A stretch of 57,282 nt of DNA, counting the filler, from Sphacelaria rigidula (taxonomy: Eukaryota): the NCBI GenBank assembly GCA_964200075.2. It is 3 parts of 3 records of this genome, joined end to end, with 100 filler letters (N's around TTAATTAATTAA, not from the genome) between each part and the next. Parts side by side here need not be neighbours in the genome. Positions count along the whole stretch, not along the records: positions 1 to 19,031 come from CAXNAA020000745.1; 2 more parts are not named here. One strand, given 5' to 3'. This document shows, piece after piece, positions 1-27,300 of this stretch (its first letter is position 1; every line of letters begins with the position of its first letter). Below the pieces are notes generated by a model. The model did not search any database and was not told where the DNA came from. It saw only the letters and a list, made by a program, of their open reading frames with translations. The translations under genes were made by a program, and so were the position numbers.

Positions 1-430
1 AATAACACCCTCCTGATAAACGGGGTCTTTATCCGGTATCGCCCCCACAACACCAACCTGGGCGATTGTGATTTGAGCACGGTTTCCATGGAAAATGTTA
101 TGCAAACCCCCCCCCGAAAATAGGTCATCCGCAGAAAATGCTAGACTGAGGTCTGTGCAGTACAGTATAGGAGGGAAACACGATCTCGATCGTTATTGTG
201 AAGAATTTTATACGTATGATTTTATCTGAATATTTATGGTTTCGTCGCTGAAAAACGGGAAACTGCTTATATTGGACCAAAAACGGTCAATAACACCCTC
301 CTGATAAACGGGGTATCAAGTCCGTATCGCCCCCAAAACACCAACGTCAGCACTGTAGTTTGAGCACGGCCTACCCTTTTCCCCTGAATTTACCGGCGCC
401 AGCACTTTCAAGTAGTAATGAAGAACAGTA
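1..430 (+). repeat. Interspersed repeat with internal duplication; another copy at ~16370-16690
   Basis: AATAACACCCTCCTGAT.AACGGG occurs at 1, 289 and 16474, with shared flanks (TCTCGATCGT..TTGTGAAGAA). Confidence 0.75.
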
Positions 431-2919
431 CTCAAGAAAAACTCAGAAAAAAGGACAACTACGAATTCTGAAAACTTCTGATGCTGACTACTATATCTCG
501 AAGCATGCTTCGCCGAGTCAAGCGATGAGCAGCTCGATAGAAAGCTCTTAGCGGTGAAATGAGTTGCGCGTTTTCATAGTGCCCGAGCCTCGTCAGTCTG
601 TAGGGTTCAACAGCTCAAGATTGCCAGAAATGGTCGATCAATGCCTGAAACAGTTCAACCTCTAAAATACCCCTCCAGGCCGTACATGAGACTTTCCACG
701 CTTGGTGTAGTATATTGCTCGCCACTGTAGCCTCCTTCTACATCTGTCGAGTGGGATATCGATGAGTAGTTGTAACCAAACGACAGTGATAGTGGCAAAA
801 TGGCAAACAAAAAAAAAGGTCAAATCTGCAGAAAGCGATTCATAGTCCATTCGCATTAGCACTAGCCGCTTGATAAAGAGAAAACCCCACTGCTTGTGCT
901 TCCGATGATGTTTTTGTTCCGTGCCAGGACACGCTCACGACGGCGTGAGACATCATGCAGTAAGCTTCTATGTGAGGCCGAGATCGTCACGACCTAGTTT
1001 GATGGCGTTACAATATGTCACGTGCGATTCGACGATCATGTCCTCGGAAAAGCCGGGTGTCGTCTACCGCCCCGACTGCTATTCGACCCAACCCTTCTGC
1101 ACCATGCGGGAAGACATAACATTGCGCGGGCGCACGTCTTTCGCAATAACCGAATACGAGCTAGGCCGGCCATCAGCGATTTTGAAACGAAGAGTGGAGA
1201 TGCTTTTGGCATTTCCAAGAGTTACGGGGTAGGCGCTGAAATTCTGACACGGCATTTTGATCATCAATCTGCGCAACCCTGTGAGGGGTGCAGAGGACCA
1301 AAAAAAAAGACAGTTGGAGCGAGTTGAAGTTTCAGCAAAAACAGGAAAAATGCTATGACTTCCTCGAAAATTGACAAGAACGATCACAACTTTGCGGCAC
1401 ATACGGGCACTCGCGTCAACCACATCCCTGTATATTTTCAGCCAAACATATGTGAAATTGGGCTTCGCGTCGCACTTCTTGCGTGACACTGGTGGTCAAA
1501 CTGATACAACAGCCTCAAATGACACGGATCACGAGTTCGAATCCCGACACGACAAAAAGGTGCTTGTGTGCACACTCTCTCGCGCCTCTGGGTTGCAAAG
1601 GGTGTCAGCGTTTTGGTGATGGTCTTGCTTTTGCGGGGGGGGGGGGGGGGGGGGGGGAAAGGGTAGCTTCAAGTAGCCCTTCTCCCTCGGGCGGTGATAT
1701 ACGGCAGTTGGTTTGAAAGTGTTTTCCCATTATGGAGCTTCTGACGAGCTTGATGTCATCTTGCAGCACGACCAGGATGCTCTCGCCGAAGCACGTCAGG
1801 TGTGCGTGTGCGGCGCAGCGCTTCATTGTAGTTACACCGCATTTTGTGAAACGAAACTTCTACAGACATTCCATCGCACAAAGAATTGGAACGTACTCGG
1901 TACTCAATGCAGTACAAAAATATCATCGCCACAAGTGCACCAGTCGGGCAGCGGTGGTACCCCATGTTACCAGTTTAGTCTACAGTTCAAAGCGACATGC
2001 TCAGGTTGTGCTGATTGGGGTAACCTGAAGAGTTATGGTGACATAGGATGCTGGTTTTACTTCCGGACCAGCTCGGACAGCGATCCGTTCTATAGAGATT
2101 AATTCGTAAGTGATTTCGTGGTCGCCCCCCCCCTCTACTGTCGAAACAAAATCACTGTTGAGGCACGAAAGATAATATGTGTAGAGGAGAGATCCGCAGC
2201 AAGGCTTAGTCAAGTCAAGGGAGATACTTGCGCCACCTCGTCCCACAAAATGGCGCCTTCATCACGATATGACACGACGATCAGAGTGCGTGAAAAGGCA
2301 ACGTCCCACATGATATTTGCCACGACGATCTTCACTCGTGCGAACAACCTCTCATTGATGCCGATCTTTTTCCTCCACTTCACATTTCGTCACCTACATA
2401 CAATTTGACAAGCCAACCAAACACCAATTTTCGACACAAGCCGCTCATCTATCGCAAGCGCACGCGCATACGCACACTGCATCTACCAAGTAAAAATCAT
2501 GAAGACTAATATTAACAGACGAAAAAAAAAGTTTCAATTATATCGCGTCGGATTACGCGTCCATACGTGCTCGTCGGAAGATGCAACCGATTCGACCCGC
2601 CCAAGCCATGGTGGGTATTGTCGTTTATCTTCTTAGCCTTGGCACAACTGACACGCCTCAACATTTCCACCGCTATTTTCAGCTACTTTTGACCTCTCAG
2701 GGAGTCACACAAAACTCGCCAACGTGGGTGTCCGAAAGTAGAAAACATCCCCGCCCACACCCTCTTCCATTCATGTAACACGCGGAGGTACTGTTTCCAG
2801 TTACAGGCGCCGAATTTTGTTCCCTTTCGCATCCATGCACTGCAACATGCTACAAGCCCTCCTCCCCCTACTATTCCCCCCCCGCCCAGACGTGGCCGGC
2901 GATTGTCCTCGTGTTCCAT

Positions 2920-5900
2920 CTACTCTCCATCCCGGCCGTTTGAGTGATCGTCATGCCCACCGCCATGGCTGCCACGGTGATCAGACCCGCCGTCTCCATT
3001 GGCATGATCGTCATCACGCCCCCGGTAACTGCGGGGGGGAGAACGGGAAGGCGACCTGTCTCTGTCACGCCTGATGGAGGGGCTCCTGGAGTAGCCGCCG
3101 CGACCACCCCCCCGCGAGCGGGAGCGTGATCTGGATCGAGAGCGACTGCGGCTCCTCCGGCCTCGATCCCGGGACCAGCTGTCCCTCCGGCGAGGGGGAG
3201 ACCTGTCCGTTGGCGCGAAAAGCAACGGCAGGGGTTCATGGCACAATCTGGTTGGTGAAGAATAGGAAGCATCTCCACTTCGAGCTAATCAAAACTAAAC
3301 TACTCCACTCACAGATATGCATTTTATTTTTTGTGACATACGCGACGAACGTACAAAATCCGATCCGTGCGATTGATTCACCGACGGAACAGAGCAGCCC
3401 CTCACTCACTTCGGCATCCATCAAATGACGCCATCTCCTCACAAATTCATCACGAGCGAGGCTTGGTAAAACAACTGCGAAAATATTTTGCATGACCCAT
3501 GTGTGTGTGGAGGTGCCACTACAAAACAAACTTATTCGTTCGACCATCGTCGGTTGTGCTCCATTCCGGGCGGGCGGGCGGGGGGGGGGGGGGGGGGGGC
3601 CCATGTGTTGTTTGCCTTTTTTTTTTGACCATCCACCACCCCCCCCTTTTAAAACGACGCCCCNNNNNNNNNNGGTGGTGGGTGGTGGTGCTGGGGCGGT
3701 GGGGGTGGTCGCCCTGCTGTGCCCATGTGTTGCTTGCCTTATTCGTTTGACCATCGACCACGCATCCCTTTCGAAACGACGCACCGTTCCTCGAGCCGTG
3801 TACAGGAGAGGGATGGTTTGATCCCTTGATACCACGAACTCGTGCCGGGGGAAGGGGAGGGGTTCGAAGTGCTAAAAAAAAAACACAGAAGGGGCCGCCA
3901 AAGGGAACCGCTAGCTTCGAACCACAGGCCGAGGGTGCTGCAAGGCCGCACAGAGCGCGGCCACAAATACAGGAAAAGCAATTTCATTTCTTGGGCCAGC
4001 ACCATCACCTGAAATATACTCTTCTGAACGTACCTCGAGTATGACCTCGAGTAGCGGCGGCGAGGAGGCGAGCGAGAGCGACGGGCAGCATAGCCACCAT
4101 ATCCCCTCGAGCGCGACCTCGACCTGGAGCGGCCGTACCTCATGCGAGGCTCATCACGTTCCTTCCTCACCATGTCTTCCGGTCTCTTGCGCTTTTCCTG
4201 CCGACAGCAACGTATAATACACAAAATGCAGCGAGGGGCATCGGCAATGTTCTAGGGGGGAACATGACAGCCACATTAAATTCAGCAGGAGCAAATGCAC
4301 GCGCCTCGTGCTCCTCCGGCTGTGGACGATTCAATGGACAAGTCGGTAGAGAATAGGGGGACTGGGTGCACATGAGGCCATTCGACTACCCACCTGAAAA
4401 TCTTATATCGCGATTTTTATCCTCTCGAGGGTAAAGTGACCCTCCGGAGTAAAAAAAACACCCTCTAGAGGATATTTCAGACTCAATTTCGGTCATATAA
4501 CGAATCCTCTGTAGGGCAACTGATGCTCCAGTGACTAATGAGGTCTCAATCCCTCTAGAGTACCAAAAATTTGGTGCTCTGGAGCACGTGGTTATCGTGG
4601 ACGTCCCGTAGAGAAATAAATATGAATCATCATTCCTATGGCCTCCAGGGCATAGGAATCGACTCCGGAGGACATAGCCGTGCAGTGTCCTCCAGCGTGT
4701 ACATTTACACTCGTGTCCCAACTGCTTCCAGGGCACCTTTGGAACCCCAGAATTCTTGTGGTATGAACCATCACGCCAGATATATATTTAGATTGAACCA
4801 TGCAAACCCGACAACACTAATTCCCAGCTACCACCACAACCCTGCAGCGAAGAGCCCGGGTATAGATGCAAAATGCCGTAGTTGGGTGTGATGTAGTTCT
4901 TGTTGGTGGAAGTTTAAACTTGAGCATCTTCTTCCATGGTCGCGGACTCGCACGGCGCGGGAACCATGCAGGGTAGGGTGCGGGCAACAACCGGCGGCTT
5001 TTGGCATGCACACTCATGGGCAGTGTAGGCAGGCACAGCTGCGCACACTGTTCAAGTCCTTTTACATATAGACAGTCCTGCGCTGTCTGTATTGTACTTT
5101 GCTCGCTTCGCTTTCACGTCCTACTGGCTGTAGTTGTGCGCATGATGAAATGACAGGCGTCGCGATGTATGCTCAGTGGCTGACGGCATATAACACCCCG
5201 TGCACTTACAGGCATCCACTTTGTTCAACTAAACGTAGCGCATATGCCCTGCTAATTCTGCAGCATATTGCACCGCACGTATAAAAGCAGGATATGGTAC
5301 TGTCCTGCACGGTATTGTACAGTTCAGTACAGTACCAACCCGTGCTTACTGTTGTGATCGTCATGAACGTACAGAATAGATGGCGATCATAATTTTTCGC
5401 GTTTCAACATTCCTGGTAATATTCAACACCAGGAATGTTGAAACGCCTAACCCCATAACTTATGAAGATAAAAAAGATGGAAGGTTTGGTATTCGCACGT
5501 ATGTCCTTTACACATGTCAAGATTTCATCGAGAACGATCCAAAATTGAACGAATATGCGTCATTGCGTCAACAACCGGCCACTTTAGTATACGGAGGTGA
5601 ACCAGTCACGAATATTTCGAACGAATTTATGCTGTTCAGTTTCAAGCTGTTTTCGATGAAATTGTGACACGATGTACAGGACGTATGTGAGAATACCTAA
5701 TCTTTCCTCTTTAGTTTTCCTGGATGAATTATTGGTAATTTCGTTCCGTCGCCTCTAACTCGCGGAGTAAAAAATACACACACGGCAGGAACGAAGGAGC
5801 GCTTGCACACATGTCCTGTACATATCAAAATTTCATCGTAAACGACCGAGTATTGAGCTCGGGAATGTTGCTACAGCTTGTGCGGCACCACGCGGCGCAG

Positions 5901-8900
5901 AACTGACTGTAACCGAAAATCCAAACTCAGTTGTTTTCTCTTGGCTAATTCCGCCCCACATAGTACCCCTAATTTCATACACTTCCGCACTTGACTTCAG
6001 TTTTGTATTTCGATTGATGAGACCTTGTAGGGTCGCAGCGCTACATGAATTTGAAGACGTGCGCTGATTTGCCGATTACCACGATGTGTCCTGGTAGGCA
6101 CAACTCGCGATACATCGTCAGTTAGAACGGACTGAAGGAAAGTGAGGTTTCTTAGGCGGCCAGCTTTGCATACAGCCGAGGCTGTTGGAAGTATTCTATC
6201 CCCTTTGCCCAATTCATATATGAATTGGGGGGCCAGAAGATGAATTTTCAACAACGTCTGCTGCCTCTCGAATCTCATCGGCTGCTACGGTGCAGTATGT
6301 GGGACTTGAAGAGCAGAAGCTGCTCGCAAATGAGTTTCGCAAGGGTAGGTCGAGTTGAGTATACTCAATACTCAGTATTTTCGAAAAGTCATACTCTTAG
6401 GACTCGAAGTTTGAGTAGAGTAATCGAGGTCGTAGCAATGTTCCTTCAAAAACAATCCAGGGAATTTTGAATATTGGCACAGATCTTCGAGGGCCCCAAC
6501 ATAAAAAAGTCCTCTCGAGGATTGCGGATACCCAACATCCTCTAGCGGGGATTTCAAAACGGACGGAACCGAGGATGACGTTTGGAAATTCCTTTACAAG
6601 GTAGCCGAATGGCCGCGTACGTAGGGAAACGGGTGCGGGAATAACGGCGTGGAGGTACGGCAAATTGAATGAAAGGCAGATTACCTGTGCATACAGAACC
6701 GAAATGTTGCGGCCATCCAAGTTGTATCCGTCCAGTCGATCCTTGGCGCGACCAGCCTCACTTGGGTCGTAAAACTGCACAGATGGCAGATAGTGAAGGG
6801 AGGGAAAAAAAATAAAGCCGTTCGAATCAAGACAGACAACACGCCGTGCATCAACACCAGTAGTACGATACATCATCACTCGTCGTACTCGTCAATGCAG
6901 TAACGAGCATATGCGGGGGGTGAAACTTTGCACGTGAGTTTGGGGCAACACCAAAAAAAACAAGTGTGCCCTTGGTACCATGGTACGGGCGACGCCACGC
7001 GATTTTTTGTCGCCGACACCAACGTTTGCTTTATACACGACTTTCCATACGAATGATTACCACCCTTGAACACAGCCGCATTCCGTAAAACAAAGAGATT
7101 CGATTCGAGAGTGCAAAATGGACATTGCTCACCTCCACGAAGGCGAATCCACGAGGCTTCCTGCAACATGCACAGCAGGCACGCGCACGCAAACACAAAC
7201 ACCAACCACGATACGATGAGGAGGAGTAGATAGCGGAGACAGGCGATACGATAACAAGAAACGAGACACGAACTTGAGCAATACCAGAAAAATTGAGACA
7301 ACCAGTGGAGTACGAGCGACCACCCAACACACTTCGCTCTGCGCGCCTGAGCCCTGTACTGTATTGAGCGAGGGTTATGTTCCACTAGCTGTACTCCCCT
7401 CGACCCGCCGGGAAAACCACAAAAAAACGGGCGATAACAGGAAGGGAAATGAGCGATTTCACGGTCGATCGCCACGCACGCACCTACAGCGTGGGCTCGA
7501 CTCGACAACTCGTGACCTCCCTTGCTCATTGTGCGACGCGTGGGATATTGCATTGCGGACAGCAGGTTTGGGGGGCATTTCCACAGCCTGCTAGGGTCAA
7601 CATGTCACCGTTTCGTCCTCACTCTCCAACAGTATCAACTTATCACCATCACCTCGCATGATGGACTCTTGGGTCACCACACGGCCCCCCGCCCCGCCCG
7701 GACAGCACGCATCATGCACACAAACAACCATCCAGTGCGACACATGGCTGGTTGCTTGGCTGCTGGCCTCTGCTTGACTCTCATGACTCGACTTGGCATG
7801 CAAGGAACTTTTCTTGGCTTGACTTGACTTCACTTGACCTCATGCCGCTCGACACTTGAGACTTCGGCTTCAATTGCTTGTTGGGGCTTGACTTCATCTC
7901 ATGCACTTGACACTTCACTTGAGGTCATCATCGGCAGCAGCATCTTCAAGACACTTGAAAAATCTTGCGCCACACTCGACGCGACTTGAGCTAGGTGGGT
8001 CGTACAGTTGGTTGGCTGATCATGAGGGAACCGCCCATCAAGACTTCCCCTTCTCTCTCTCTCTTGTCTCATTGAGCCGCTTCTCTTCTCTTCACTTGTA
8101 CCCCCCTCTTAAACCCCACCTCAGCTGGCTGCATCGCGCCGTTAGAGAGCACACAACACAGCACTGGATTATTTTTCAAAACTCCGAACCGCAGCTTTGG
8201 CACACGGGACGCAAGAGGGTGGGTACACAGAAATTGTGAAACATTTCACTCGCTACTTCGTGCAAAACGTACAAAATAGCAAACAACAACGTCGGGAGGG
8301 TGGGATAATTCGTCTTCATCATTGCTTCACCAGGATTCGTTGTTTGCATCACGATAGCGCCCCATTCGCTGGGGTGGCGGAGTCCCAACGCGGCGGAGAG
8401 TAATTTGACCAGAGCACACAGCACACGCATCAAAGACGAAAACGGGTAAAAAACACCAGACGCATCGCAGCACATTTCACCAAAGGTACGCCTCTTCCAG
8501 ATACGCAACAGGGTAACACAACCTGAACGCGACATGCAGGTCACGTTTGCTTTATATGTCGCTGAATTCAACAGTGAGTATACTTCATGTGCATCGTCAG
8601 CCAAATGGTGGAAGCGCCGGCCGCGATAGTGTGGTGCTCGTGCTAGGCCGGCTGTACGAAATTCGAGGAGCAGAAACCTCACGGATCACGCAAAGAATGC
8701 ACAGGGATTGACTGCGTTGCACAAATACCTCCACCAACAAATACAGCTCACTCGGTACAAACACACGAAGTCAACGTGGCATATGTGTACGAAGCATGCA
8801 GTACGGCAGTATGAGGAAGAAGTACACTACAGATTATAGTACTCGTACTACTGTACAGACAACTGGCTGTACACAGCCGAAATGGGCCAAGCGAAGGAGC

Positions 8901-9562
8901 AGGACGCGAATCGATGAAAAATAACGTCATGTACCAGGTAACATATTGCACCCCGGACTCTCTTTGTTCTTTCGAGGATACGTATGCCTGAGGAACAAAC
9001 GCGTTTGGAGCAGGTGATGAGAAGGAAACAAGGAGGAATATGCAAGCCGAAATCTGTTCATCATATAACTCTCAAGGCAGAGCGCGGCACAATCAGTCTT
9101 TGCCCCTCCCCCCGCGCCCTTCTCGCTGTGCAAACCTAGCAGCACCACGACAAGACCCCACAAACGAAACACAAAAGCAAGAGACATGAAGGGCGCCAAC
9201 CACACAAAATCAAAACACAGTCATGGGTGTTTGCCGAACTCCAAAATGAAGCCAACAACCCAGACATGAGATCCAACACAAAGAACTCGAAAAAATAATA
9301 TGTTTGGCTGCCCGCAATCTTCTCCGGTCGTCGCCCCCACGGACATAGAGCATACTCACTGTGTGCCGAAGTCGAGGGGCAGATAAACATCCCGGATGTC
9401 TCCGAAGTCGGAGAATATCCTCTTCACGTCATCGGGTCTGGTGCGAAACGTAAGGTTGCGCACCAGGAGCGACACCCTTCCGGGGCCACCATCACGACCA
9501 CCGCCGCGGTCGCGGCTGTCGTCTCGGCCATAACCTCTACCCCTGTCACGGTCCCTGCTCAT
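2920..9562 (-). CDS. SCL: Serine/arginine-rich splicing factor, SCL/SRSF10-like (single RRM + RS domain), 5 exons, ~255 aa
   Basis: Exons 9562-9360, 7160-7133, 6774-6685, 4197-4034 and 3202-2920, all GT-AG and phase-consistent (768 nt). The spliced RRM reads SLLVRNL..DVYLPLDFGTQ|KPRGFAFVE|FYDPSEA..LDGRNISVLYAQ|EKRKRPEDM, followed by RS repeats. The short N-terminal extension and the post-RRM 'EKRKRPEDM' are typical of the SCL/SRSF10 group. Confidence 0.93.
3580..3785 (-). mobile_element. G-tract retroposon copy/copies in intron 4 of the SR gene (spans a 10-N gap)
   Basis: The core TGTTGCTTGCCTTATTCGTTTGACCATCGACCACGCATCCCTTTCGAAACG is at ~3728-3778. A low-quality duplicate follows a long G run at 3580-3663. 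Confidence 0.65.
7484..8128 (-). other. Candidate poison/alternative exon in intron 1 of the SR gene
   Basis: A CTAAC branch (8145-8141) and TGCAG| acceptor lie upstream of an in-frame TGA (8094-8092), a GA-rich tract and 10 TCAAG motifs. A possible donor is TAG|GTGCGT at 7484. Confidence 0.55.
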
Positions 9563-10101
9563 ATCTCTTCGCTGCTTTAACTATTTCTCTCTCTATCAGT
9601 TCTCCGGGTTCCGTTGATGATTGCGTTGGTGTTGTGAAAAGTGTAGTGTGGTCGTTGAGGCTGTAAAATGAGCCTTCACTTGATCTAAGAGGGCCAATAC
9701 CCAATACGACTACATTGTATTGGAAACCTGAAGGTAGTCTTAATTGGGACGTACGTATACATTTTTGGGTACGTGTCATCTTACGTCATTTTTCTGCTCT
9801 GTTTTCTACATCTCCCGTCCAGTACAGGAGAGTGAAGTATCTCTGGGTGACCGTGCTACCACTACTGTTCTGTGCTCCTTTGAGGCAATCTCACGGGCGC
9901 ATCAGAAAGCTCAAGGAGCATAAAGGGAGACGTTGTGTCCCATTCGTTTGCTTGCTGCTGTAGCAGGGGGCAGGGGGGAAAGCGGCCTAAAACGCGCACT
10001 GCGTGACGGCGAGTTTCTGCTTTTATCCAGCATCGCTCATTTACTCGCGTCCTCCGATCTAACTGCCGCAGCACAGACAGTCCAGTCGGTAGCAAGCGAA
10101 C
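9563..10101. promoter_or_regulatory. Bidirectional promoter/5'UTR region between the SR and NFU genes
   Basis: Divergent ATGs are separated by 539 bp. CCAAT occurs at 9694 and 9701, ATTGG at 9719 and 9743, and there are several ACGT cores, including TGACGT (minus, 9783-9788). Confidence 0.6.
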
Positions 10102-13100
10102 ATGAAGACCGCCTACACACCCACGACCACCACCAGCACCAGAAGAAACAGAACAAGATTGGCAGCAGCAGCTATAGCTACTCTATTTCATGCCTCCCCC
10201 GCCGGGTCATTCTGTTCCCCACGGCCAGTAACATTCCGCGCATGTTTACAAACTGCTCCATCAACATCAACAGCGACATTCTCCAGGCCCTCCTCAGAGC
10301 GTCGGTGGGCACGCAGCAGCTGGGGGGGACGCGAGAGGGGTTGGGGCGGACGCGGGGAGGGGATAAACAGGAAGCACGGCGTACTGCTACTTATGTCGTC
10401 GACGGACATTGAGTCTCCCTTTGCCACCCCTGGTGTGGCTGGTAATGAGATGGAAGAAGATGACATAGACGCGGTGCTGCCACTTACCCTGGAGAATGTG
10501 GAGAAAGTTTTGGATGAGATGAGGCCGTATCTTATGTCTGACGGGTGAGTAACGTCTACGGCTGTCATGTAGGGTGGCGGGAGCGGGATACTCGTTGCAT
10601 GTGTTGTCTGGTGGGTGGGAGAGGGTAGTGAGGAGGGGGGGCATAATTTTGGTTGCTCAAGAGATGCGTGTTGATGCGTTTGGGGGTTGCAGCAGCTCTG
10701 CTCGGTTCTGGTGTTTAAGTGTTGCCGATACCCTACTGTCATGTTACACGCATTGCGACTTGGCGACAAATACGACGCACAATCGAAACGGGGGGGACAC
10801 CGATACAACTTAGCCCGTCGCCACGCCATCATAGACAACCCGTGTGAGTCGAACTAGTTGCATGAACCCCAGATGTTACGAAAGAATCATGCGCAGATTC
10901 CCGTACTCGGGTATTTCGCCCGCAACAGTCACACCGTCTTCTCCATCCAGTTGTTGCTCTCTGGGGATCAATTTGGCTGCCCTCAAGCAATGCCTCTGTC
11001 CCTCTTTCTCCTTCGCAGCACCTGTATCTCATCGTTGTTGGAGGGATGAAATGTACATGTGCTTGTGCTCAATCCGGTGTTTCCGTGAGCTAGAGCAACT
11101 GTACGCGATGGTGTGCTACAGATGGCGCTTGAAATATATTCACACAATCACACAGACTGCCCACTCGAACATATCCCCGCCCTAGCCCGCGGAGCCCGGA
11201 AGACCTGTGATAACAATCCTACGGGCAATTTTTTTAGAGACTGCTCTGGTCTCGAAAAGGTACACCTGGTCAACCAGCACAAGCGGCGGTACCATCGGAG
11301 AAAAAATGAAGCAGGAAATGTGCTCGTCCGGTTCAGACGACGCATTTGTGATTTGGCTTGTGCTGGAGTTGGGTCCTGTCACGGAATGCAATGATGCTAC
11401 TGCAATATGTATCTTGTCTTCCCCCTGTTCCTCTTCGGTGCACAAAAGTGGTGGCCATCTTCCACTTCAACGCTGCGCTGCGATCCAAAACGCGATCGCA
11501 CAAATATGTCGCAATTCTCAACGCATGTATCACATACACGTCATGCATCCTATTTTAGCGGCTATATTTCAAGCCCAACATGGTGCTCTTGGCCACATTC
11601 GGTGTGCTTTCGCTGTTGGTGGTTTCATCCTCGCCCTTTTTGTATATTTTTATTATTTTCGCACATTAGCCCGATCTCTCGAACCAGTGGTCACAGACGT
11701 GAGCTCGTCCTTTCCAATTCCATCACAAGATTTTTTTTGTACTCCCGCTTAATTACAAGAACATACACAATTGGCTGAAATATTACCAAAATGAAAGTAT
11801 GAAGAGAGATCCCAAGAAAAACATGAAAGTAGCTTCCCCGAGTTCAAGAGATCCTATTTGTAACCTCTTCATGTGCGGCAAAGTGTATCGCCTTTGACCT
11901 TGATATACTGAGCTGGTGCGTATGTATCTCAGCTACCCGTGCACATGGCAGGTTGATTTATCTCATCACGTGCGGTGTGAAAATAGATGTATATCTCTGT
12001 GCCGCAGTGCGGGGTCTTTTCAATATTATGGGGGCGTTATTTTCGAAGCGTATGCGTCCAAAGACAGCACACCTGGCGTCCGATGATGCCGAAACTTTAG
12101 GTATGTATGGGCTTAGGTCGCAAGTTGGTGACGTCACAAAATTTCCCGCGATCCAAGGCGTTCTGTGCGCAAATTGGCTCGAAATGATGATTGTGGACAG
12201 CCAAAGTCCTTTCGGAACATTCGACCGTTCGGACAAATCATCGCCGGTTTGAAACGCCAAATCCACAATTTTTCAGGCCTGATTGCTCGACAAAGAGAAG
12301 AAAGTTGACCGGTGGTCAGAAAAATCTCGACGCAATTTTTGCACCAAACCACGTGCCTGGGCTGCGCGTACCTGGGTTGCAACGCTGAGAACAAAGCCCA
12401 AGGATTGATTCGTACGGTACTAATCAATTACGCTAAAATCAAGTAATTTCCAGACGAACCATCAACTCGTCCGACCCTTGGAACATTCTTCACCTTCTAG
12501 TGTCAATTACAGAGGGTGCAAGATGAAACCGCCGCTGAGGCACCGGCAGATCTTGCCAGTATAATCGTTTTACTCGGTCCGCCTGCTGGTCGACGCGCGC
12601 AGTAGCGTAGGCGTAGGTAACAAGCACCATTCAGGCTTGGTGATATTTTCCGGGTTGTTACCGTCCGGGTTTTTACGCCGTCTCGCGCGAGAGGTGGTCG
12701 TACAGCATAGTCAAAGACAACAGTGTCTTCTGCCAAGGGCCGCTGTGAAGCTTTACGGAAAGAGGGCAACGTCCCGCTACAGACGGTACGACAACTTCTC
12801 AGCAGGACGCCAAGGCAGACCGACCAAGAGGGGGGGGCGTACTCATTCGTTGCCTGCCTTAGTCGTTCGACCATTGACCACGCATCCCTTTCGAGACGGA
12901 GCACCATTCCTACTACTCATAGAAACACCTCTGGAGGCAGTTGGTCTTTCGCGATGCTCTCAGAATAAACCGGTGGTTCTTGTGGACGCTGGTCGCACGT
13001 GAATATCTTGAGCTTTCTTGAACATGCACCTCGCCGACCTTTTTGCAGACTTTTTTCAGCCGTTTCACTTGCTCTCATGTTACGACAGCGATCATTTCGC

Positions 13101-16100
13101 AATTTACACGGATGGATCGCGCGGATATTCCAGCCCTGCCGAGGCGTCGTACCGTACTGCCGGCTCCAAGCACGCACCGCCAACTTTGTTCTGCATATCT
13201 GCATCGATATACAATTCGTGTATGAAGCGCTTGCTCCCTCGGCAGTGACGTGAACCCTTTGCCATCGGGGAGCCTCAGCCCCGGACATCGTCTGTATCGT
13301 CATAGTTCCGTACTGATGCGCGCACCTCTCTTCCAAAGACGAGTGCCTCAACGAAAGTCAACACATGTCACGCCGCGGAGCATGGCCGTTTCAAGTGTAG
13401 CTCCCACGTCACAAATTAAAAAATATATATAGAATCGCCTCCATATTATCGAAAAGAAACCAGACTGACCGGGTCTTTTGAGCATGGAAAATACGGGTGA
13501 AACGTCCGCTAAAGGCAACATGATGACCACGGCGGTTCCGCCGCACATGGCTCCTGCTGGCGAATCCAAAGCCTCCAGGCCTCATACCACCACATGTTTG
13601 TTGTATGTGTTTGCTGTACGTTACACATGAGGTAGACATGATGTCACGGATGGAATAACTTCGGGAGCTTGAAATCTGTGTACCAGCCCTTTTTTCGTTC
13701 TTGAAAGCCTGTAAGACATCGTACAGTCAGTCAGTGTCGGATGCGGGCTGTGTTGTAAAGCTAAGTCAGGGTACGCTTCGGCGTCCCAACATGTGCGGGG
13801 GGGTACGAATTTTGCCGCCTTGCCTCATGTGCCTCATGTGCGGCATGGATGTATTCCCATCAAACCTTGTGCAATTAATTTCATACTTCGTTTATATCTT
13901 CCACGGTTTCCGACGAATCATCGCCGGTTCGAATCACCAAATCCACGATTTTTCAGGCCGGATGGCTCAACAAAGAGAAAAAAAAGTTGGCCGCTGGTCA
14001 CAAAGGTCTCCACGCATTTTTGCGCCATCCCACGTGGTGCCTGGGCTGCAACGCTGAAAACACAGCCCAAGGATTGATCCGTACCGTACGAATCGATCAC
14101 ATTAAAATCAGGTAATTCCAGACGAATCATTGATTCGTACGACCCTTGACATCTTATCTTGTTCCAGGACACTCCATGGCGCATGTGATTTATACGTATA
14201 ATGTGACGTCAGCACCTGCGACTGTGATCGAACGTAGCTGCCTAGGCCAAGTTCGTGCTGAAATCAAGTCACGTGGGATTTTGAGCCCTCTCAGTCGACA
14301 GTGCGCACGTGGTCGAACTTCATCCAAGATGTTTCCTTGTCGAGGTCTACGTACAATCGTCAAATCTCTTGTAACAGGACGCTAGTGATCCCACGGTTAT
14401 ATGCGTTGCCTTAGAGGGGTGGGAAATAGTGTCACACGAGAGCACTATGATAGTCTCTCGCAACACCAGAGAGCTCGTCCGCGCAGGTGGGGGGGTCGGG
14501 GGGGGGGGGGTGAACACCAAAGCAGCGACAAACTTTGTCCTCACTTTGCTTTGAAGTGTTGATTACACTTTGCCTTTCACATATGCGGTACATTTCAATC
14601 GTTCTCACATTCAGTTATACTTGCTGCGAGCTGAGCCGCAGCGTTGCTCTGAAAAAACGAGTGTCAAGTTTCCAGGGTCCAGACCGAAATATGTTATATC
14701 GGTCATCCTCTACGATAGTACGGAGGCCTTTACAAATACATCAAGAAAAAATGGCTACCGAAACACTGATTGACACTCCGACAATCTTGGGACAGGAAAC
14801 AGGTGAATCCGAACTCAAGCACCGCCCAGGAACATCGGCAAAATTCTATCACGTGCGAGTACCGCTGGGGATGAATGGGTTCGGGTGTTGAATCTCTACA
14901 AGCGATTCGATAGGATGGTCTCAAGCATGCTTGGTCGCCATTCGTATTTTCGTATTTTCCGACATGTGTATGGCCACTTTGTCGAGGTCCCTCCACCCAT
15001 CTGCGCGGGGTAATGAACGTTTTTGAAATACCTCACCTTCAAAGTAGGATATTTGGCCATTTTTTCGTAATCGGCGATTTTCTTGGGTTCTTTCCCTTGC
15101 CACTACTCATCTCTCTGGGAGTCCGGGGATTCTAGTATCTGCTCCACATTTCAGGAAGAAGATACAAGGTTGTGTTCTGTAAGGTACGGTTTTCTGTATA
15201 CGCGGGATATTTTTCCGGGTATGTACCGTAGACGACAGTTCCATGACTTCTGTGAGACTTTCATACCGATACCCGACAGTTCTTTAATCTCTGTAAGACT
15301 CTCATACCCTTACCCGATAGTTCTGTGAGTTCTGCACAATACATTTACCCGAACTCGAAGGGCGGGTATACCCGAAGAGAGTTACCCGATTGCCGGTACC
15401 GGTTCCCTGTAAGCCTCCCATACCGTACCCGACAAGTTCTGTAAAGTCTGTAAGACTTTCATACCGGTACCCGACGATTCAGTAAGTTCTGTACTTAACA
15501 TTTACCCGAACCCGAGGGGCGGGTACACCCGAAGAGAGTTATCCGATTGCCGGTACCGGTTCTCGGTAAGCCTCCCGTTCCGTACCCGACAAGTTCTGTA
15601 AAGTCTGTAAGACTTTCGTACCGGTACCCCACAGTTCTGTAAACTCTGTGAGACTTCCATACCGGTACCCGATATTTCTGTAAGCTCTGTAAGCTTCCTG
15701 TACCCTTACCCGGGGTTAGGGTATACCCTTGCAGATATACCCCGTTGCAGGTACGAGCACAGGTATATACCCTCTGGAAGTATGGATATAGGTTTAATCA
15801 AAACATAACCTAATGGCCCGAACATGTACCTCCCAGCTCCTACCGCCACATCCTGCCCTCTCAGTCATTTGTTTGAGCATCCCAACCAAAAAATCCAAGG
15901 TTTTGTTCTGTAAGGTACGGTTTTCTGTATACCCGGGGTATTTTCCGGGTATGTACCGTACCCGACAGTTCTGTAATCTCTGTAAGACTCTCGTACCCTT
16001 ACCCGATAGTTCTGTGAGTTCCTTACATAACATTTACCCAAACCCGAAGGGCGGATATACCCGAAGAGAGTTACCCGATTGCCGGTACCGGTTCTCTGTA

Positions 16101-18156
16101 AGCCTCCCATACGACAAGTTCTGTAAAGTGTGTAAGACTTTCATACCGGTACCCGACAGTTCTGTAAAGTCTGTGAGACTTCCATACCGGTACCCGATAT
16201 TTCTGCAAACTCTGTACGGAATCTCATACCCAACAGGACGTACCCGTACCTTACAGAACACAACCTTGAAACTATCATCTGCAGTCAATGTTGGGTGACT
16301 TACAGGCTGACCGGTCATCGGGGGTCCTGCTGTTTTTCAGCCCAGATCCTGACTCTTCGGTATTTTCGGTCGATCGAGCCTGTCTCGATCGTCTTTGTGA
16401 AGAAATGAGGAGGCTTGTGTTTCTTATGTCACCCACTCATTAAACTAGAACCAAAAAACTTTGTTTCACTGTCAATAACACCCTCCTGATGAACGGGATA
16501 TCTACTCGTTTCGCCCAATAACACCAATTGACACTAGCTTGGGCACTGTGTTTTCAGGACGATCTGTTTGTTGTGTAATACCAAAATCTACCGACGCTAG
16601 CACTTTCGAGTTCTATCGAAGAGTACTACGCGAGACAAGAACAAAACAACCTGTGCTACTTTGAACTTTGGGTACTACATATTTCGTTAGTGCGCATTAT
16701 CCTAAACTCGAACGTTGGCAACCCCTGACAGCGTTGTGCCAGCAACAAGAGGTCACTTGGTGAATCACCCCCTTCCCCCCACTCCCCCCCAAATATAATA
16801 ATCATGATCGTATTAGTAATAGTAATGAATGAATGAAAAATAACGCGGCGGAGTCAACGCACTCGGGCAAGCGAGTGATATCAAATTCAGACTACCTACT
16901 GCCTTGACTGGGAGTGTGGTCCTGTCGCCCATCGTGACGTTGATGCCATGAGGTGGGGGTCGTAAATCAATAACGTGATCCACATTCCCCATGTGGTATG
17001 TAGTGCCTGTATCCGCAATACATTTCTCTGCACCATCACCCCTACTAGATGCAGCGTATCTGCCTAGGACTGATGCTGCGATAGCCCCCCCCAGGAAAAT
17101 GACAAAAGCAGAGCGCACCGAGCAACTGGAAATTCCCACCTGGGATCATTTTCGCGAATGTAGCCCATATGAGGGGCTTCATGCAGTCTGAAAACAGTTG
17201 TCATGCGCTGTATGACCGTTTTCTCGGTGACAGTTTTCGTGCTGCTTTGGAGGGGGACTATCGCGGCGGCATCACTTGAGCATGTAATCGGCGTATGTAA
17301 GGGAACGTGTGAGTAGTGAACTTCTTCATGGCCGTTTTTCAGAGCTCGGAAATGGTTTGCTCAACCATTAACCAGTTGAATGGTTACGCGTAGCGCACTC
17401 ATTAATCAGTTAAATGGTACATGATGGTTTGGTCATCGAGCGGCGCAGCCGCGAGCGCGAGCCAGACACGTTTATACGCGATTTGGCTTCACTAGAGCTA
17501 AGAGTTACATCAAATTTGGGCCAATGTTCGAGGGCTGGATGTAGCATACGTCGCCGTTAACGGTTAATGATGATTTGAAACCACCATCCAAAATTTTCAT
17601 GTATCCATTACCATTGTTACCATTATAAAGATGATGGTCAGTTGTAGCTGGTACCATTTCCGAGCTCTACCGTTTTCAATGATCTTGTGAGTACGGCATG
17701 CAAGATCACGAGTACACCCCTCATCGTTCACCAGTGCGCTCCCTGTTCATTCATGATATCTGCCCAAATATTTGACGTGCCCTGCAACGCGGTTTTGGTG
17801 GAGCACCGTGCCGATAATCACAATGAACTCGAAATACCCTTGTTTTCATAGGAAGTAGGGTTGTAAGCCATACGACTGTAAACGCACCGATCTGTATGAG
17901 TGTATAGTCGGCCGCTCTCGGAACCCCGACGTACCTGTACACACTCGTTTCTGACGTCGTGACATGGCATAACAGAGGAAACGTCCGCGTGGTGGAAATT
18001 GATGGGCCGGTGGTGCGGTTGGAATTGGAGGGTGCTTGCGGCAGCTGCCCTAGCAGCACCATGACGATGAAGATGGGGTTGGAGAGACGATTAGTCCAGA
18101 AAATTCCGGAGATCAGCGAGGTGGTACAGTCCATCCCCGAAGGTCCCGAGCTGAAC
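10102..18156 (+). CDS. NFU: Plastid-targeted NifU-like (NFU) Fe-S cluster scaffold/carrier; 5' two exons, 3' end not in window
   Basis: Exon 1 is 10102-10544 (GG|GTGAGT) and exon 2 is 17976-18156 (AACAG|A..AAC|GTGAGT). The spliced NifU-C domain reads [66 protein letters not shown], with the CxxC motif. The N-terminal hydrophobic stretch ending AGS-F resembles a stramenopile signal + ASAF transit peptide. Intron 1 is 7.4 kb. Confidence 0.92.
12234..14148 (+). repeat. Direct repeat pair (~245 bp; 12234-12479 and 13914-14148), probable DNA-transposon end
   Basis: AATCATCGCCGGTT..CCAAATCCAC.ATTTTTCAGGCC..GCAACGCTGA..AGCCCAAGGATTGAT..CGACCCTTG is present in both. Confidence 0.75.
12830..13420 (-). 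mobile_element. Longer copy of the G-tract retroposon, possibly a decayed LINE 3' region
   Basis: The conserved core is at 12837-12903, next to a G run. Upstream minus-strand translation ([10 protein letters not shown] / KRFIHEL across a frameshift) weakly resembles RTE-type LINE ORF C-termini. The upstream extent is uncertain. Confidence 0.5.
15165..16268. mobile_element. Nested non-autonomous hAT-like elements with ~30-bp subterminal repeat arrays (TACCCGACAGTTCTGT..)
   Basis: A perfect 25-bp TIR CAAGGTTGTGTTCTGTAAGGTACGG is at 15165-15189 and 16244-16268. A second left TIR lies at 15896 with a degenerate 8-bp TSD (AAAAAATC/AAACTATC). Confidence 0.8.
16860..17070 (-). mobile_element. Ty1/Copia retrotransposon protease-region fragment
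   Basis: [35 protein letters not shown] matches the Copia W-x-x-DSGA-x-x-HM..GNG..G.G pattern. Confidence 0.7.
17070..17276. mobile_element. Short MITE-like element; related sequence at ~26350-26475 and ~48825-48990
   Basis: Inverted ends GCTGCGATAGCCCCCCCCA / TGGAGGGGGACTATCGCGGC. The internal GAGCGCACCGAGCA.CTGGAAA (shared with ~26365) and TCTGAAA..CATGCGCTGTATGACCG (shared with ~48900) recur elsewhere. Confidence 0.5.
17340..17669. mobile_element. hAT-type MITE (330 bp)
   Basis: TIR YAGAGCTCGGAAATGGT at both ends, an 8-bp TSD CCGTTTTT/CCGTTTTC (7/8), and internal CCATTA repeats. Confidence 0.85.
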
Positions 18157-19031
18157 GTGAGTATCGTTCCAACGCCTCGAGCTTTTCATTTGCTTGTTTG
18201 TTTGATTGTTTGGTTGTTCTCTCTTCCTCTGTGTGCCGTGTGCTTCGCGGACTATCAGAATCATATTCAAATGGTTTGAACGAACGTCTACAGCTTTTTT
18301 GCCCAACGCTTTTTTTTTAGTTCGAAGCGTTACCTTGCATCCCTACAAAGCCGGGACGGAGCACCCCAGGTTTTCGCCAGACCAGACTCGCAATTAATCA
18401 CACAAGCGTGAAGCGCCGTGGTGTGCTCGGCGAGTCGCATGAAGGGTGAGCTGCATCCTGCTGAGATTTTCAGGCCCGAAGCGTGTTGATCATCTCGCAT
18501 TTGGATGACAGCCTCCAGTGAGTTTCTTCATTTTCTGGTGTCGCCACTTCCAGAGACAGCCGAGGGGGGGGGGGCGGCAATAAGCGTCGGGTCCTCTCTT
18601 TACTGCTCGAATGAAGGGTGAGGTTCGGATGGGTGTTGGGGCCCCAGGAATGCGCTCGATCAGTCGGGTCGATGAGGTCTTCATGTTCACTCTCGAGTAG
18701 GATATGATACCCACTTTGCATCTCACTGGTTTGTATAAGTAAGAGTAATGCTAGTTTGTTTGTTTTCTCGTTGAGCTCTGCAGATGCCCAAAAAGTGTAA
18801 TGCGTGCAGTATGGAATCGACACTGTACGCAGTACACTTTTATGACAATGCCATCTATTGCCCAGGGTGTAGGCGATTGTCGATGGACACTTTTGCCCAG
18901 GGTGTAGTCGAACTTCCGAAGAGATGGAGATCAAAACGTGACGTTATATTCCTTCGAACACTATGAACCATTCGACCGCCACGGTGGGGGGGGGGAGGGG
19001 GGGTTACTCTCATGTGGGTTTGTTGTTCCAT

Positions 19032-24300: not shown

Positions 24301-27300
24301 TTGCGGCTGCGGCCTTTGTCTGACCACCCAGCTGCGACTCCCCCGTCAGCGAATCCGCCGAAGATCGCCGGCGTGGTTTGCGTACACTTGCCGACGATTC
24401 CTCCGCGGAAGTGCTGCCAGTTGAGGTCACACGCCGGTGTCCCACACTGTTCGACCTCTTTTTGGACGACACTTTGGGCTTGCGGGGTCCGTATGACAGC
24501 GCCTTCGTTGTCGGCTCGGGACTGCTATCCTCGTCAGCCGTCTGGGCGAACCCCCGCCTGCTTACGTCCGCGTCGCTGCCTCCGGCAAACGAGAACCTCT
24601 CCCTCCTCGCGGTCGGCCGGGTTTTGCTCGGCCGCCCTTTTGACTGCTGCGACGCAGAATCGCCATCAGGTTCCATTTGTCCTTCGTTCCTCGTCTTCCG
24701 AACCGTGATGATTGTCGACCGTTGCCTCTGCACTGGTCCTCCTCTTCGTGGCTTGGTATGGGACCCTGGTGCCGAACCACCGGTGTTGCTTTTTCGGCGC
24801 ACCTCTGCATCGCTGCCGGCTTCCGACATGGAACCGTTGTTAACGTTCCACGCGCCCGTGCCATCCTCCGCGAACATCTTCCTCACAGGATTCATTCCTG
24901 CCCCGGCGTGTCGCATGGCATGCCTGCTCAAGAGGGCGTCCGAGTGTACTCGCGCATGATGCGCATCCTTCGACCCCACCCCCAAATCCGATCTCGATCT
25001 CGGACTCCCCGTGTCCCCAATCCGCAGTCTCTCCACACCGCGAGTGGCTTTTGTCCCATGCGCCACTCTTCCGGACCCCATTCGATTCCTCTCGCTACTG
25101 ACGGTAAACGAGGACGATCTCTGCCGCTGAAGGTACCCTCGCTCGCTTCGGCTGCCGCCGTGGTGCGACTGGGAGCGGCCACTACTACTAGCGCGAGCGC
25201 CAGAAGATCCGGCCTGCGGGGGGCCACGGCTCGGGGTTGTCGAGCGACCGCGTGTCGCGCGATGCGTTTCCGAGCTGAAGGATGTGACACGATTGTGCCC
25301 TCTACTCGACTGTTGACGCTGCGCGGCGTTCAGCACGCGATCGTTCCAGAGGCCGTCTTCTGATCGGGTGCCCCCTAGGCCTCGCTCGCTTCCGTGTCCG
25401 CTTGCAGGGCCAGGTTGAGCCGCTCCGAGCATGTTTCGCCATGTGCCTGTTATGTGTGTGCATCATGCAGTGGTGGGCAAGTGATAAATTTGTACAAAAA
25501 TGATTTCACAGTGTTGTATTCTGCGGCAAAAATGCAACATTGTGGGCGCAGAGTCCACAGATAGGGGCAAGAATCATGGCTGGCACGATTTTTCGACCAA
25601 TCAGAGCCTCCCAATATACCAAAATGCGGCGACCTTTTTTCACTCAGATGAGAGAAATGAATGTGATTTGAGTGGTCGAATAGCAGGGATTGGCCCACAA
25701 TGGCTTGGGATACAGCAGCTCCGTGCTGGCTCAGTTTGTGTGCCCCAACCTGCACGCGTCCGCCTTGCGCGTCTTCTCCAATCACAGCACCCGCTTACAA
25801 CTCAAGTACCAAATAAGACGGAACAGACAGCTGCACAGTAGTCACGTAATCGTTTCAACTTTGTGTACAGCACCTTGATTCCCCCCCAGTTCTGTGCAGA
25901 CCGACACATGCATGCAGCAGCATAACTATTTGTCGTAGAGTGCTTAAATGCACAACAGCACAGCGACAACTACAGCATAGAAATGATGGATGTGGGAAGC
26001 GCCTGGTTCGTTTGACGGAAGACGAAACAGCCAACACACAACACTGTGTAGGCAGCACTGCGTGCCGACAAACATGAGTTTCCTCATTTTTTGTGAAGAC
26101 GAAGGTGGTGACAATAAGGCAGCTGACGCAATCCCAGCGAAGACCAAATCGTCTTCGCAAAAGTCCGTACACACCACAGCGTAGTGACAGCTACAGCACA
26201 TGATTGAGGGCGTGGATGTGTTTGTGCTGCAGCACGGTTCTTCAACGCCCGGACAAAATCATTCTCCTCACTTTGAGTTAGACTGATGCCGCGATATCCC
26301 CCACTCCAAAAGTGGCTGGTTTGAGGGGGCAAAATCTACACACGAATCAAAATGACGGAGAGGCTGAGCGCACCGAGCAGCTGGAAACTCTCGCATGTGG
26401 GATCGTATCTTTTTTGCCAGTAGTAGGCGCTTCGTGCCGTCTGAAACCGGCCATCGTGCGCTCGCTGTATATCAATGTTGTTCGTAACAGTGTTTGGGCA
26501 TCACTCGATACCCCCATCTGTGGGAGGTGAGCCACATAATGGCCCAAATGACACTCCGTAAACTCACCGTTTTTCCCGCCTGCCCCGCTATGATGCCCGG
26601 GCTCAGACTGAGCACTGCCTCGACTGTTGTGGATGGCCGTGAGATTATGAATAGGCTCGGGGGCCTCCAGATGTCGCTTGCACAGCGGACACACGATGTG
26701 CGTGTCACACCATTTGTGTATACAGGACTTGTGGAATACGTGCAAACAGGGAAGCATGCACAGCTCGTTGCCTTCTTGATAAGCACTGGCGGACAACGAT
26801 AGGAAGAGGGAGAGAAAGAGGAACAAACCCATGAGTTGACGTGAGCATTGTCAAGTAATACAATGTTCGCATTTAATATGTCACGGTCGACGAGGGAAAG
26901 GGACTGCTGAACCCCTCTCGCGATCAAAACAAAAAGGCAAGCACCGCAGAAGGAAGGTGGGGTATTAAAAACAAATAAAAAACAAAAAGCTCCTGTGTCG
27001 TCCTTCCTGTGTGACCCCGGCTGATGCACCCAGATATACCCAAAGGGTGTAAACTGGTGCCCAGAATAAATGGGACAACACACACATACACTGCAGAGTA
27101 CGAGCTACATGACACTTACCATATCGGTCTACAAAGAGTCCCTCACAAGCACAAATTCCAAAAGGAAGGGCATACTTTTTTTCTGGAACCCGTACCTGTG
27201 GAAGAGGATATTTTATATGCCACGAAAAGACATTCTGTATTGGCCGGTGCTTCAGCCCGCTGTAATGTACTGCATGCGGTTGCACCGACTACAGAGCAAT

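Follow-up and report, generated by a model that had tools for sequence, protein, structure and literature searches.

A poison cassette exon with a dense UCAAG array in the RRM-splitting intron of an SC35/SRSF2-like gene of the brown alga Sphacelaria rigidula

The cassette exon and its joints in RNA

In the brown alga Sphacelaria rigidula (assembly GCA_964200075.2) we analysed a stretch of 57,282 nt, filler included, which is made of three parts of three records joined end to end (positions 1 to 19,031 come from CAXNAA020000745.1) and which is called the window hereafter. Positions 8128-7653 on its minus strand are a poison cassette exon, that is, an alternative exon bearing a premature stop, in the intron which splits the RNA-recognition motif (RRM) of an SC35/SRSF2-like gene of the serine/arginine-rich (SR) class of splicing factors. 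In RNA the exon is joined to both of its neighbours alongside a form which skips it, and we regard its existence and use as practically certain. A preliminary description, made from the sequence, had proposed a stop-bearing alternative exon in this intron; the RNA joints bear out the proposal, and a sequence check found every sequence feature which it had listed in place on the minus strand.

The RNA evidence comes from assembled contigs of four public runs (X1, X4, X7 and X8) of two studies, placed on positions 6600-9750. Contig depth is one figure per contig and a poor measure, and the depths quoted here serve as rough guides only. The features on which the argument leans are listed below, a slash marking a splice boundary.

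9562-9360, 7160-7133, 6774-6685, 4197-4034 and 3202 onward (minus strand): exons of the SR gene
9360-9562 (minus strand): coding part of exon 1, with an RD/RG-rich N-terminus and the RNP2-side half of the RRM; its last codon is split after two bases
7161-9359 (minus strand): intron 1, 2199 nt, GT..AG, phase 2, dividing the RRM between its RNP2 and RNP1 parts
7133-7160 (minus strand): exon 2, 28 nt, an RNP1-type RRM segment with joints on both sides in all four runs
9360->7160 (minus strand): constitutive joint, four of four runs, junction-contig depth 261-807
7133->6774 (minus strand): constitutive joint, four of four runs, junction-contig depth 364-1096
7653-8128 (minus strand): poison cassette exon of 476 nt, a length not divisible by three, with the joints 9360->8128 and 7653->7160
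9360->8128 (minus strand): joint skipping 1231 nt, GT..AG, one of four runs (X7), depth 171
7653->7160 (minus strand): joint skipping 492 nt, GT..AG, four of four runs and both studies, depth 47-74
8129-8145 (minus strand): 3' splice-site region of the cassette, CTAAC at 8145-8141 followed by GGCGCGATGCAG/, with the AG at 8130-8129
7651-7652 (minus strand): GT of the cassette 5' splice site, GAG/GTGATG, used by 7653->7160 in all four runs
7161-7652 (minus strand): downstream sub-intron, 492 nt, GT..AG, excised in all four runs when the cassette joins exon 2
7484 (minus strand): donor proposed earlier, TAG/GTGCGT; the sequence is present, its use was not seen
8092-8094 (minus strand): premature TGA in the exon-1 frame, reached through acceptor 8128; predicted 79-aa product (in-silico splicing)

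No run is registered as RNA, and spliced forms of the SR gene were nevertheless present in all four. The acceptor predicted at 8128 proved to be used in X7 by the GT..AG joint 9360->8128, at a depth of 171 (the constitutive joint 9360->7160 of that run has 261), and X7 also yielded a separate 477-nt contig covering 7652-8128 at a depth of 226, flanked by intron contigs of depths 98 and 74. On the downstream side, 7653->7160 amounted to 7-17% of the two joints into exon 2 added together (47/712, 74/503, 55/316 and 67/874). The two joints together set the limits of the exon at 8128 and 7653; they come from separate contigs, no single contig spanning both, and the upstream sub-intron is thereby 1231 nt long. 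The exon had been expected to end at 7484 or else to be an alternative terminal exon. Neither expectation held, as the donor found in all four runs lies at 7653 and the cassette is spliced on to exon 2 in each of them. A tandem acceptor had been pointed out as well, a second AG at 8126-8125 that would place the acceptor at 8124 (TGCAG/CCAG/). Of the joints which had been predicted, 9360->8128 was found, and no joint to 8124 or from 7484 is listed in the four runs, in which contigs show presence and not absence.

Besides these joints, unspliced material was observed. The whole of intron 1 was covered by contigs in all four runs at depths of 65-131, compared with 3-16 for intron 2, which excludes carry-over of genomic DNA as the source of this cover, since DNA would cover both introns alike, and points, as far as contig depth allows, to an intron 1 that is retained or slowly removed. 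A 549-nt contig (7133-7681) running across the downstream sub-intron was recovered in each run, and therefore unspliced forms of this sub-intron exist. In X1, X4 and X8 the upstream side was represented by one unbranched contig, 9388-7652. Sequence differences were also seen between the runs and the window: X4 and X8 share three, at 9491, 9633 and 9677 in exon 1 and the leader, of which that at 9491 is a synonymous third-position change, and X4 has further ones in intron 1, eight in the upstream and one in the downstream sub-intron, the cassette exon being free of them. The X4 and X8 differences look like strain or allele variation.

The gene and its predicted product

The SR gene lies on the minus strand, its open reading frame (ORF) running from the ATG at 9562-9560 up to the GT at 9359, and joining of the exons by coordinates with in-silico translation gives a product of 255 aa. 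Exon 1 (67 codons) matched Pfam RRM_1 with an E value of 3.4e-6 over profile positions 1-33 of 70; intron 1 is thus placed after profile position 33/70, just ahead of the RNP1-type segment, and in the spliced translation the remaining RRM is supplied by exons 2-3. The nearest solved chains to the exon-1 peptide were the RRMs of SRp46 and SRSF2 (E about 2e-7). An SR protein is commonly recognised by a C-terminal RS domain which is 50 residues long or longer and exceeds 40% in RS content. In the predicted product an N-terminal RRM is followed by an RS domain of 63 aa, residues 130-192, in which RS/SR dipeptides make up 57% of the residues, and 36 such dipeptides were counted in residues 118-255. 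Because of this 57% content the gene, judged by its predicted product, encodes an SC35/SRSF2-like SR splicing factor, of the SC35/SCL kind. It may be noted that intron 4 of the gene contains an assembly gap (N run at about 3663-3673, region 3575-3673), flanked by long C/G and A homopolymers, the two sides of which look like near-duplicates.

When exon 1 was searched against proteins of similar length, 22 short ORFs with 66-90% identity were recovered, the only named sources among them being the brown algae Hapterophycus canaliculatus and Ectocarpus sp. All 22 (P0032-P0053) end where the window's own 68-aa ORF ends (...G-T/S-Q/S). The shared end point indicates that the position of intron 1 is conserved across the brown-alga group. 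A stop right after exon 1 is a trivial consequence of a phase-2 intron starting with GTRA. A cassette-encoded tail was present in none of the 23 exon-1-like public ORFs, the window's own included. A search with exon 1 directed at longer proteins gave distant homologues only, with 47-63% identity. A metagenome scan gave one relative (L001, 6001-6300; 63% identity over residues 31-67) whose RRM-coding region has no intron at the intron-1 position, an intron being located further upstream instead; not every relative, therefore, has the RRM-splitting intron.

Consequences for the reading frame

Inclusion of the cassette through acceptor 8128 brings the exon-1 frame to the TGA at 8094-8092, and acceptor 8124 would give CAC TGA, a stop after one codon; an early in-frame stop by either acceptor had been anticipated, and both were found in the sequence. 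The TGA at 8094-8092 lies 439 nt upstream of the cassette/exon-2 junction, far beyond the distance of about 50 nt upstream of a junction by which the stop of a poison exon is recognised, and three further junctions follow downstream. Retention of intron 1 ends the frame at once (CAG TGA; the read-through adds TQ and stops). With cassette inclusion, or with retention of either sub-intron, the frame ends after 67-79 codons, and owing to these early stops all the non-canonical forms seen are unproductive by sequence. The components of nonsense-mediated decay (NMD) are ancient in eukaryotes (PMC5709506), and the cassette and retention transcripts would most likely be removed by this route.

The UCAAG array and the purine-rich tract

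Two motif-rich segments lie within the cassette exon, as the preliminary description had them:

8044-8099, approximately (minus strand): purine-rich tract with five GAAG and one AGAAGA, just inside the exon
7773-7989 (minus strand): UCAAG array, ten exact copies in 217 nt, irregularly spaced by 5-45 nt

Both the tract and the entire array are inside the exon defined by RNA. The GAAG/AGAAGA tract begins 30 nt and ends 85 nt inside the 3' splice site and is followed by the ten UCAAG and eight further CAAG. Copies of UCAAG occur commonly as GUCAAG (six) or UCAAGU (seven), and interleaved with them are the variants CCAAG (four), UGAAG (five) and UCGAG (three). On the same strand the window holds 68 TCAAG in its 57,282 nt, a rate of 0.26 per 217 nt against the ten seen; the earlier estimate was of about 0.2 expected at 7773-7989. 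In dinucleotide-preserving shuffles of the 476-nt exon 1.53 copies were expected, and none of 2000 shuffles reached ten.

The enrichment follows the boundaries of the exon. CAAG occurs 18 times in the cassette exon, never in the 1231-nt upstream sub-intron and twice in the 492-nt downstream sub-intron; the corresponding counts for GAAG are 11, 7 and 1. AAG occurs 31 times in the exon against 17.6 expected, and the purine fraction is 0.60 in the exon versus 0.45-0.47 in the flanking sub-introns. When 9700-6701 was divided into bins, SAAG (S being C or G) reached 7-11 per 100 nt in the three bins over 8100-7801 and 0-3 in all others. The motif enrichment is restricted to the cassette exon and to the transcribed strand. 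UCAAG forms the densest non-homopolymer pentamer cluster in the window. Other pentamer clusters of 8-9 copies are found at about 15.2-15.8, 29.7 and 41.3-41.6 kb, at or beside tandem repeats called by Tandem Repeats Finder (TRF), and repeat-like clustering is therefore not rare in this genome, a caveat on any calculation of chance.

The array had been described as not being a simple tandem repeat. A simple tandem repeat or microsatellite was rejected, as TRF did not call the array at a score of at least 50 and the spacings range over 5-45 nt; that description stands for the array as a whole and fails for a 26-30-nt core at 7813-7842 (5.2 copies of CTTGA), which at a score of 30 TRF called together with 7760-7789 and nothing else. 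The claim that the exon has no second copy in the window was upheld by blastn, the best non-self match being 17 nt long (E 0.27). Among 1.84 billion protein representatives, the search with an ORF of 115 aa spanning the exon's acceptor half brought up one weak match (E 1.5e-4, six matched stretches). It gives no sign of a coding transposon remnant or of a conserved or dispersed element, and, a blank of this sort proving little, it does not speak against such an element either. No Rfam family matched at E of at most 1 over 6600-9750, and a structured RNA element was rejected, the fold of the cassette exon having a z of 0.10 with 52 of 100 shuffles folding as well; the lack of a special fold and of an Rfam match is as expected of a linear protein-binding array. 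Two further candidates were rejected by eye: UCAAG as a decoy 5' splice site, since GUCAAG mismatches the SR gene's own donors (GTGAGT, GTGAGC, GTAATC, GTACGT and GTGATG) at +3, +5 and +6, and UCAAG as a branch-site mimic.

Five of the six commonest hexamers of the array (TCAAGT, GTCAAG, CTCAAG, AAGTCA and GAAGTC, not CAAGTG) are in the list of predicted Ectocarpus exonic enhancers (supplement file 8, PMC3787667), an overlap which lends weak support, because that list holds about 40% of all hexamers (PMC3787667).

Some other sequence words were recorded in and near the exon. CATGA is over-represented in it (5 versus 0.9 expected; 2 of 2000 shuffles reach 5), and three UGCAUG and five CAUGA within 7653-8128 (minus strand) are interleaved with the UCAAG copies. 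A 10-mer of the array, TCAAGTGAAG, occurs four times in exact form in the window: twice in the cassette exon, once at 52804 (plus strand) and once at 9674-9683 (minus strand). The last shares the strand of the gene and precedes the ATG by 112 nt; it is covered by RNA contigs in three of the four runs and may be in the 5' leader. A G-run at 7685-7699 (minus strand; G3, G4 and G6 tracts in 15 nt), 33-47 nt upstream of the cassette donor, might fold into a G-quadruplex or be bound by G-run factors close to the 5' splice site.

A proposed circuit of unproductive splicing

We propose that the fraction of the pre-mRNA taking the unproductive path would set the level of the SR protein, as in homeostatic unproductive splicing. 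The exon-restricted GAAG tract and (U)CAAG array may together form a multi-site exonic enhancer, recruiting SR-type activators to a large exon whose splice sites would otherwise be passed over. If the product of the gene were itself among these activators, negative feedback would result, with UCAAG being read either by the same RRM, as an SAAG variant, or by another factor. To this reading as a whole, namely an exon for unproductive splicing with an SAAG enhancer and with the gene's own product among its activators, we give a probability of roughly 0.5. Its parts differ in standing. A regulatory role through unproductive splicing is probable; on the array acting as an enhancer we hold an even opinion; that the gene autoregulates is a tentative proposition, somewhat against the odds; and that UCAAG is the protein's own motif we consider unlikely.

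Several observations weigh against this reading. The RNA data are all assembled contigs, without strand, level or condition labels, and the joint of exon 1 to the cassette was found in only one of four runs. In X1, X4 and X8 the upstream sub-intron seems to remain in the molecules spliced by 7653->7160, unless the upstream joint was too rare in these runs to be recovered in the assembly; retention of the upstream part fits slow or ordered splicing as well as it fits regulated inclusion. Absence of X4 intron-1 variants from the cassette exon (0 of 9) is not significant (P = 0.11). The portion of the array at 7813-7842 is a short pentamer tandem repeat. A literature search of titles and abstracts gave no established UCAAG binder among the matches listed, which looked incidental, and in the available parts of the reports on SC35/SCL proteins UCAAG is not among the motifs given (PMC4598772, PMC5362245). 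In plants, a long intron in a comparable position is present in atRSp31, a gene which is under the control of atRSZ33 and does not regulate itself (PMC1636356). Finally, a survey of 19 stramenopile genomes found 12 to lack SMG1 (PMC5709506), and NMD in this lineage may therefore work differently.

Comparison with known systems

The closest likeness is with plants. In all three plant-specific SR subfamilies, SCL, RS and RS2Z, the first RRM is interrupted by a long intron which undergoes alternative splicing, and in the RS subfamily (atRSp31, atRSp40) alternative 3' and 5' sites in this intron create a stop-bearing exon (PMC1636356). The algal gene has the same arrangement, a long intron between RNP2 and RNP1 with alternative 3' and 5' sites giving an extra early-stop exon, together with purine (GAAG) motifs within the regulated region. 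The truncated product of atRSp31 retains 35 RRM residues (PMC1636356), and the figure of about 35 for the plant RS product compares with 37 in the predicted product of the alga. The long intron of atRSZ33 mediates autoregulation of that gene (PMC1636356). Autoregulation has also been demonstrated for SCL33, which binds GAAG repeats located in an intron of its own pre-mRNA (PMC4598772), and SCL30 binds AGAAGA (PMC5362245); if feedback exists in the alga, the precedent of the family therefore points first to the purine tract, and the motifs read by the protein may be GAAG/AGAAGA as in plants, UCAAG, or both as SAAG. The dense UCAAG/CAAG array of the algal exon is not described for the plant genes in the available parts of the reports on them (PMC1636356, PMC4598772). 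The alga further differs in belonging to another eukaryotic supergroup, in the longer intron (2.2 kb versus about 0.4-1.1 kb in plants), and in that autoregulation has been demonstrated for atRSZ33 and SCL33, while the algal gene is known here from its sequence and RNA contigs.

Among animal genes, TRA2B has a poison exon densely filled with GAA-type sites for its own protein. Mammalian SRSF2, which together with SRp46 is closest in sequence to the N-terminal half of the algal RRM, has its unproductive events in the 3' untranslated region, unlike the event of the alga inside the RRM-coding part, and the SRSF2 RRM prefers SSNG, which fits CAAG and GAAG only partly. The enhancer architecture of Drosophila doublesex (dsx) consists of several copies of a short element and a purine-rich element in a weakly recognised exon. 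The algal exon resembles it in having a multi-copy short element, possibly SR-read, in a weak exon, but doublesex is an unrelated gene with an unrelated motif that yields a productive sex-specific mRNA and not a poison isoform, so the analogy is one of mechanism only. The dsx enhancers are bound by SR proteins (PMC5861446). Stop-bearing cassette exons whose isoforms are expected NMD targets are likewise present in SRSF3, SRSF4/5/6, SRSF7 and TRA2B; feedback through binding of the protein to its own pre-mRNA is documented for several animal SR genes (PMC4379411), SRSF2 being among the SR proteins which bind their own pre-mRNA and promote its unproductive splicing (Sureau et al. 2001, cited in PMC4379411). 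Animal poison exons are ultraconserved or highly conserved, and the algal exon differs from them in gene position and motifs. In animals and fungi, SR genes have acquired unproductive splicing repeatedly and independently, at non-homologous positions (PMC4379411).

Other explanations

The same poison exon could be controlled by another SR or heterogeneous nuclear ribonucleoprotein type of factor, or by a light, stress or life-cycle signal, UCAAG being the site of that activator or repressor and the gene's own product being uninvolved. We rate this explanation as rather unlikely, though it has precedent in the control of atRSp31 by atRSZ33 (PMC1636356) and in SRSF3, which cross-regulates other SR genes (PMC4379411). 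It would also suit the finding of the exon-1-to-cassette joint in a single run, by which usage differs between samples, and the dissimilarity of UCAAG to the GAAG/AGAAGA of SC35/SCL proteins (PMC4598772, PMC5362245). The exon, however, also has a GAAG/AGAAGA tract of the kind bound by relatives of the protein, and autoregulation is common among SR genes (PMC4379411, PMC1636356).

Splicing noise is a less probable source of the observed forms. By this account a decayed low-complexity or pentamer repeat happens to lie between usable cryptic sites, and the isoforms are by-products; the weak (CTTGA)n tandem repeat in part of the array, the other 8-9-copy motif clusters in the window and the failure of the ORF across the exon to find conserved relatives among the 1.84 billion representatives all agree with it. 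Against this, 7653->7160 recurs in all four runs, which come from two studies, and makes up 7-17% of the joints into exon 2, and in X7 the upstream joint reaches 171 versus 261; such use is far above typical noise. Motif enrichment confined to the exon and to the transcribed strand is also at odds with noise, and regulated poison exons are the rule for this gene class and intron position (PMC4379411, PMC1636356).

Even less probable is that the exon aids the removal of a 2.2-kb intron by subdividing it, or that it marks transcripts kept in the nucleus with a detained intron and finished later, control then working by delayed splicing and not by NMD of a cytoplasmic poison isoform. Three of the four runs have the downstream sub-intron spliced and the upstream part contiguous with the exon, and the cover of intron 1 is much deeper than that of intron 2, but contig depth is a poor measure and X7 contains the fully spliced exon-1-to-cassette form. 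The cassette ends in AG, and its junction with exon 2 could re-serve as an acceptor, which is true of most exons. Classical recursive splicing was ruled out, because the exon-1/cassette junction CACA/CCAG re-forms no 5' splice site (GT).

Lastly, a function of the alternative transcript itself, as the message for a 79-aa protein with the RNP2 half of the RRM or as a noncoding RNA sponge for a UCAAG binder, is scarcely credible: the inclusion isoform does have an ORF of 79 aa, and Kalyna et al. allow some activity for analogous plant transcripts (PMC1636356), but half an RRM would be unlikely to fold, the exon has no Rfam family and no stable fold, and none of the 23 exon-1-like ORFs has a cassette-encoded tail, all stopping at the end of exon 1.

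Other features of the window

A 3041-nt contig of X4 which includes exon 1 extends about 2.6 kb upstream of 9750 and reaches the region of a divergently placed neighbouring ORF (10093-10548, plus strand). A weak named match in Scytosiphon was obtained for a neighbouring ORF. An exon at 26350-26850 (minus strand) encodes a RING-H2 zinc finger (zf-RING_2, E 2e-9). The 417-aa open frame at 33734-34984 (minus strand), with a hydrophobic C-terminal part and no Pfam domain, is a lineage-restricted gene; public assemblies contain an identical protein of 411 aa and some 20 relatives of 34-58% identity. A 41-nt tandem-repeat family (cores like ...CCCGACAGTTCTGTAA...) occurs at 15233-16216 and 43759-45475, about 28 kb apart, and probably represents a dispersed satellite or belongs to a mobile element.

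Implications

Poison splicing of SR genes has been documented in animals and fungi (PMC4379411) and in plants (PMC1636356). The kind of arrangement described here is thus already known, and an RNA-supported case from a brown alga is new; full-text and broader literature searches found no report pairing a poison exon with stramenopiles or brown algae. It extends poison splicing of SR genes to another lineage with independently evolved complex multicellularity, in which the position of the exon within the protein domain matches that in plants. A bolder construction, which we think distinctly improbable, is that the UCAAG array is a lineage-specific sensor of high avidity read by the protein's own RRM, with an enhancer code distinct from GAAG, and that the RRM-splitting intron is a site of SR homeostasis shared by plants and stramenopiles; if this were true, the intron site would have been inherited from a common ancestor or found independently at almost the same codon of the RRM. 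For brown algae, exonic enhancers are known to date from statistical prediction only (PMC3787667). The exon, in which a single pentamer recurs ten times in a 217-nt block beside a classical GAAG tract, is a compact test object, which could reveal the targets of brown-alga SR proteins and the manner of exon definition in a genome of long introns.

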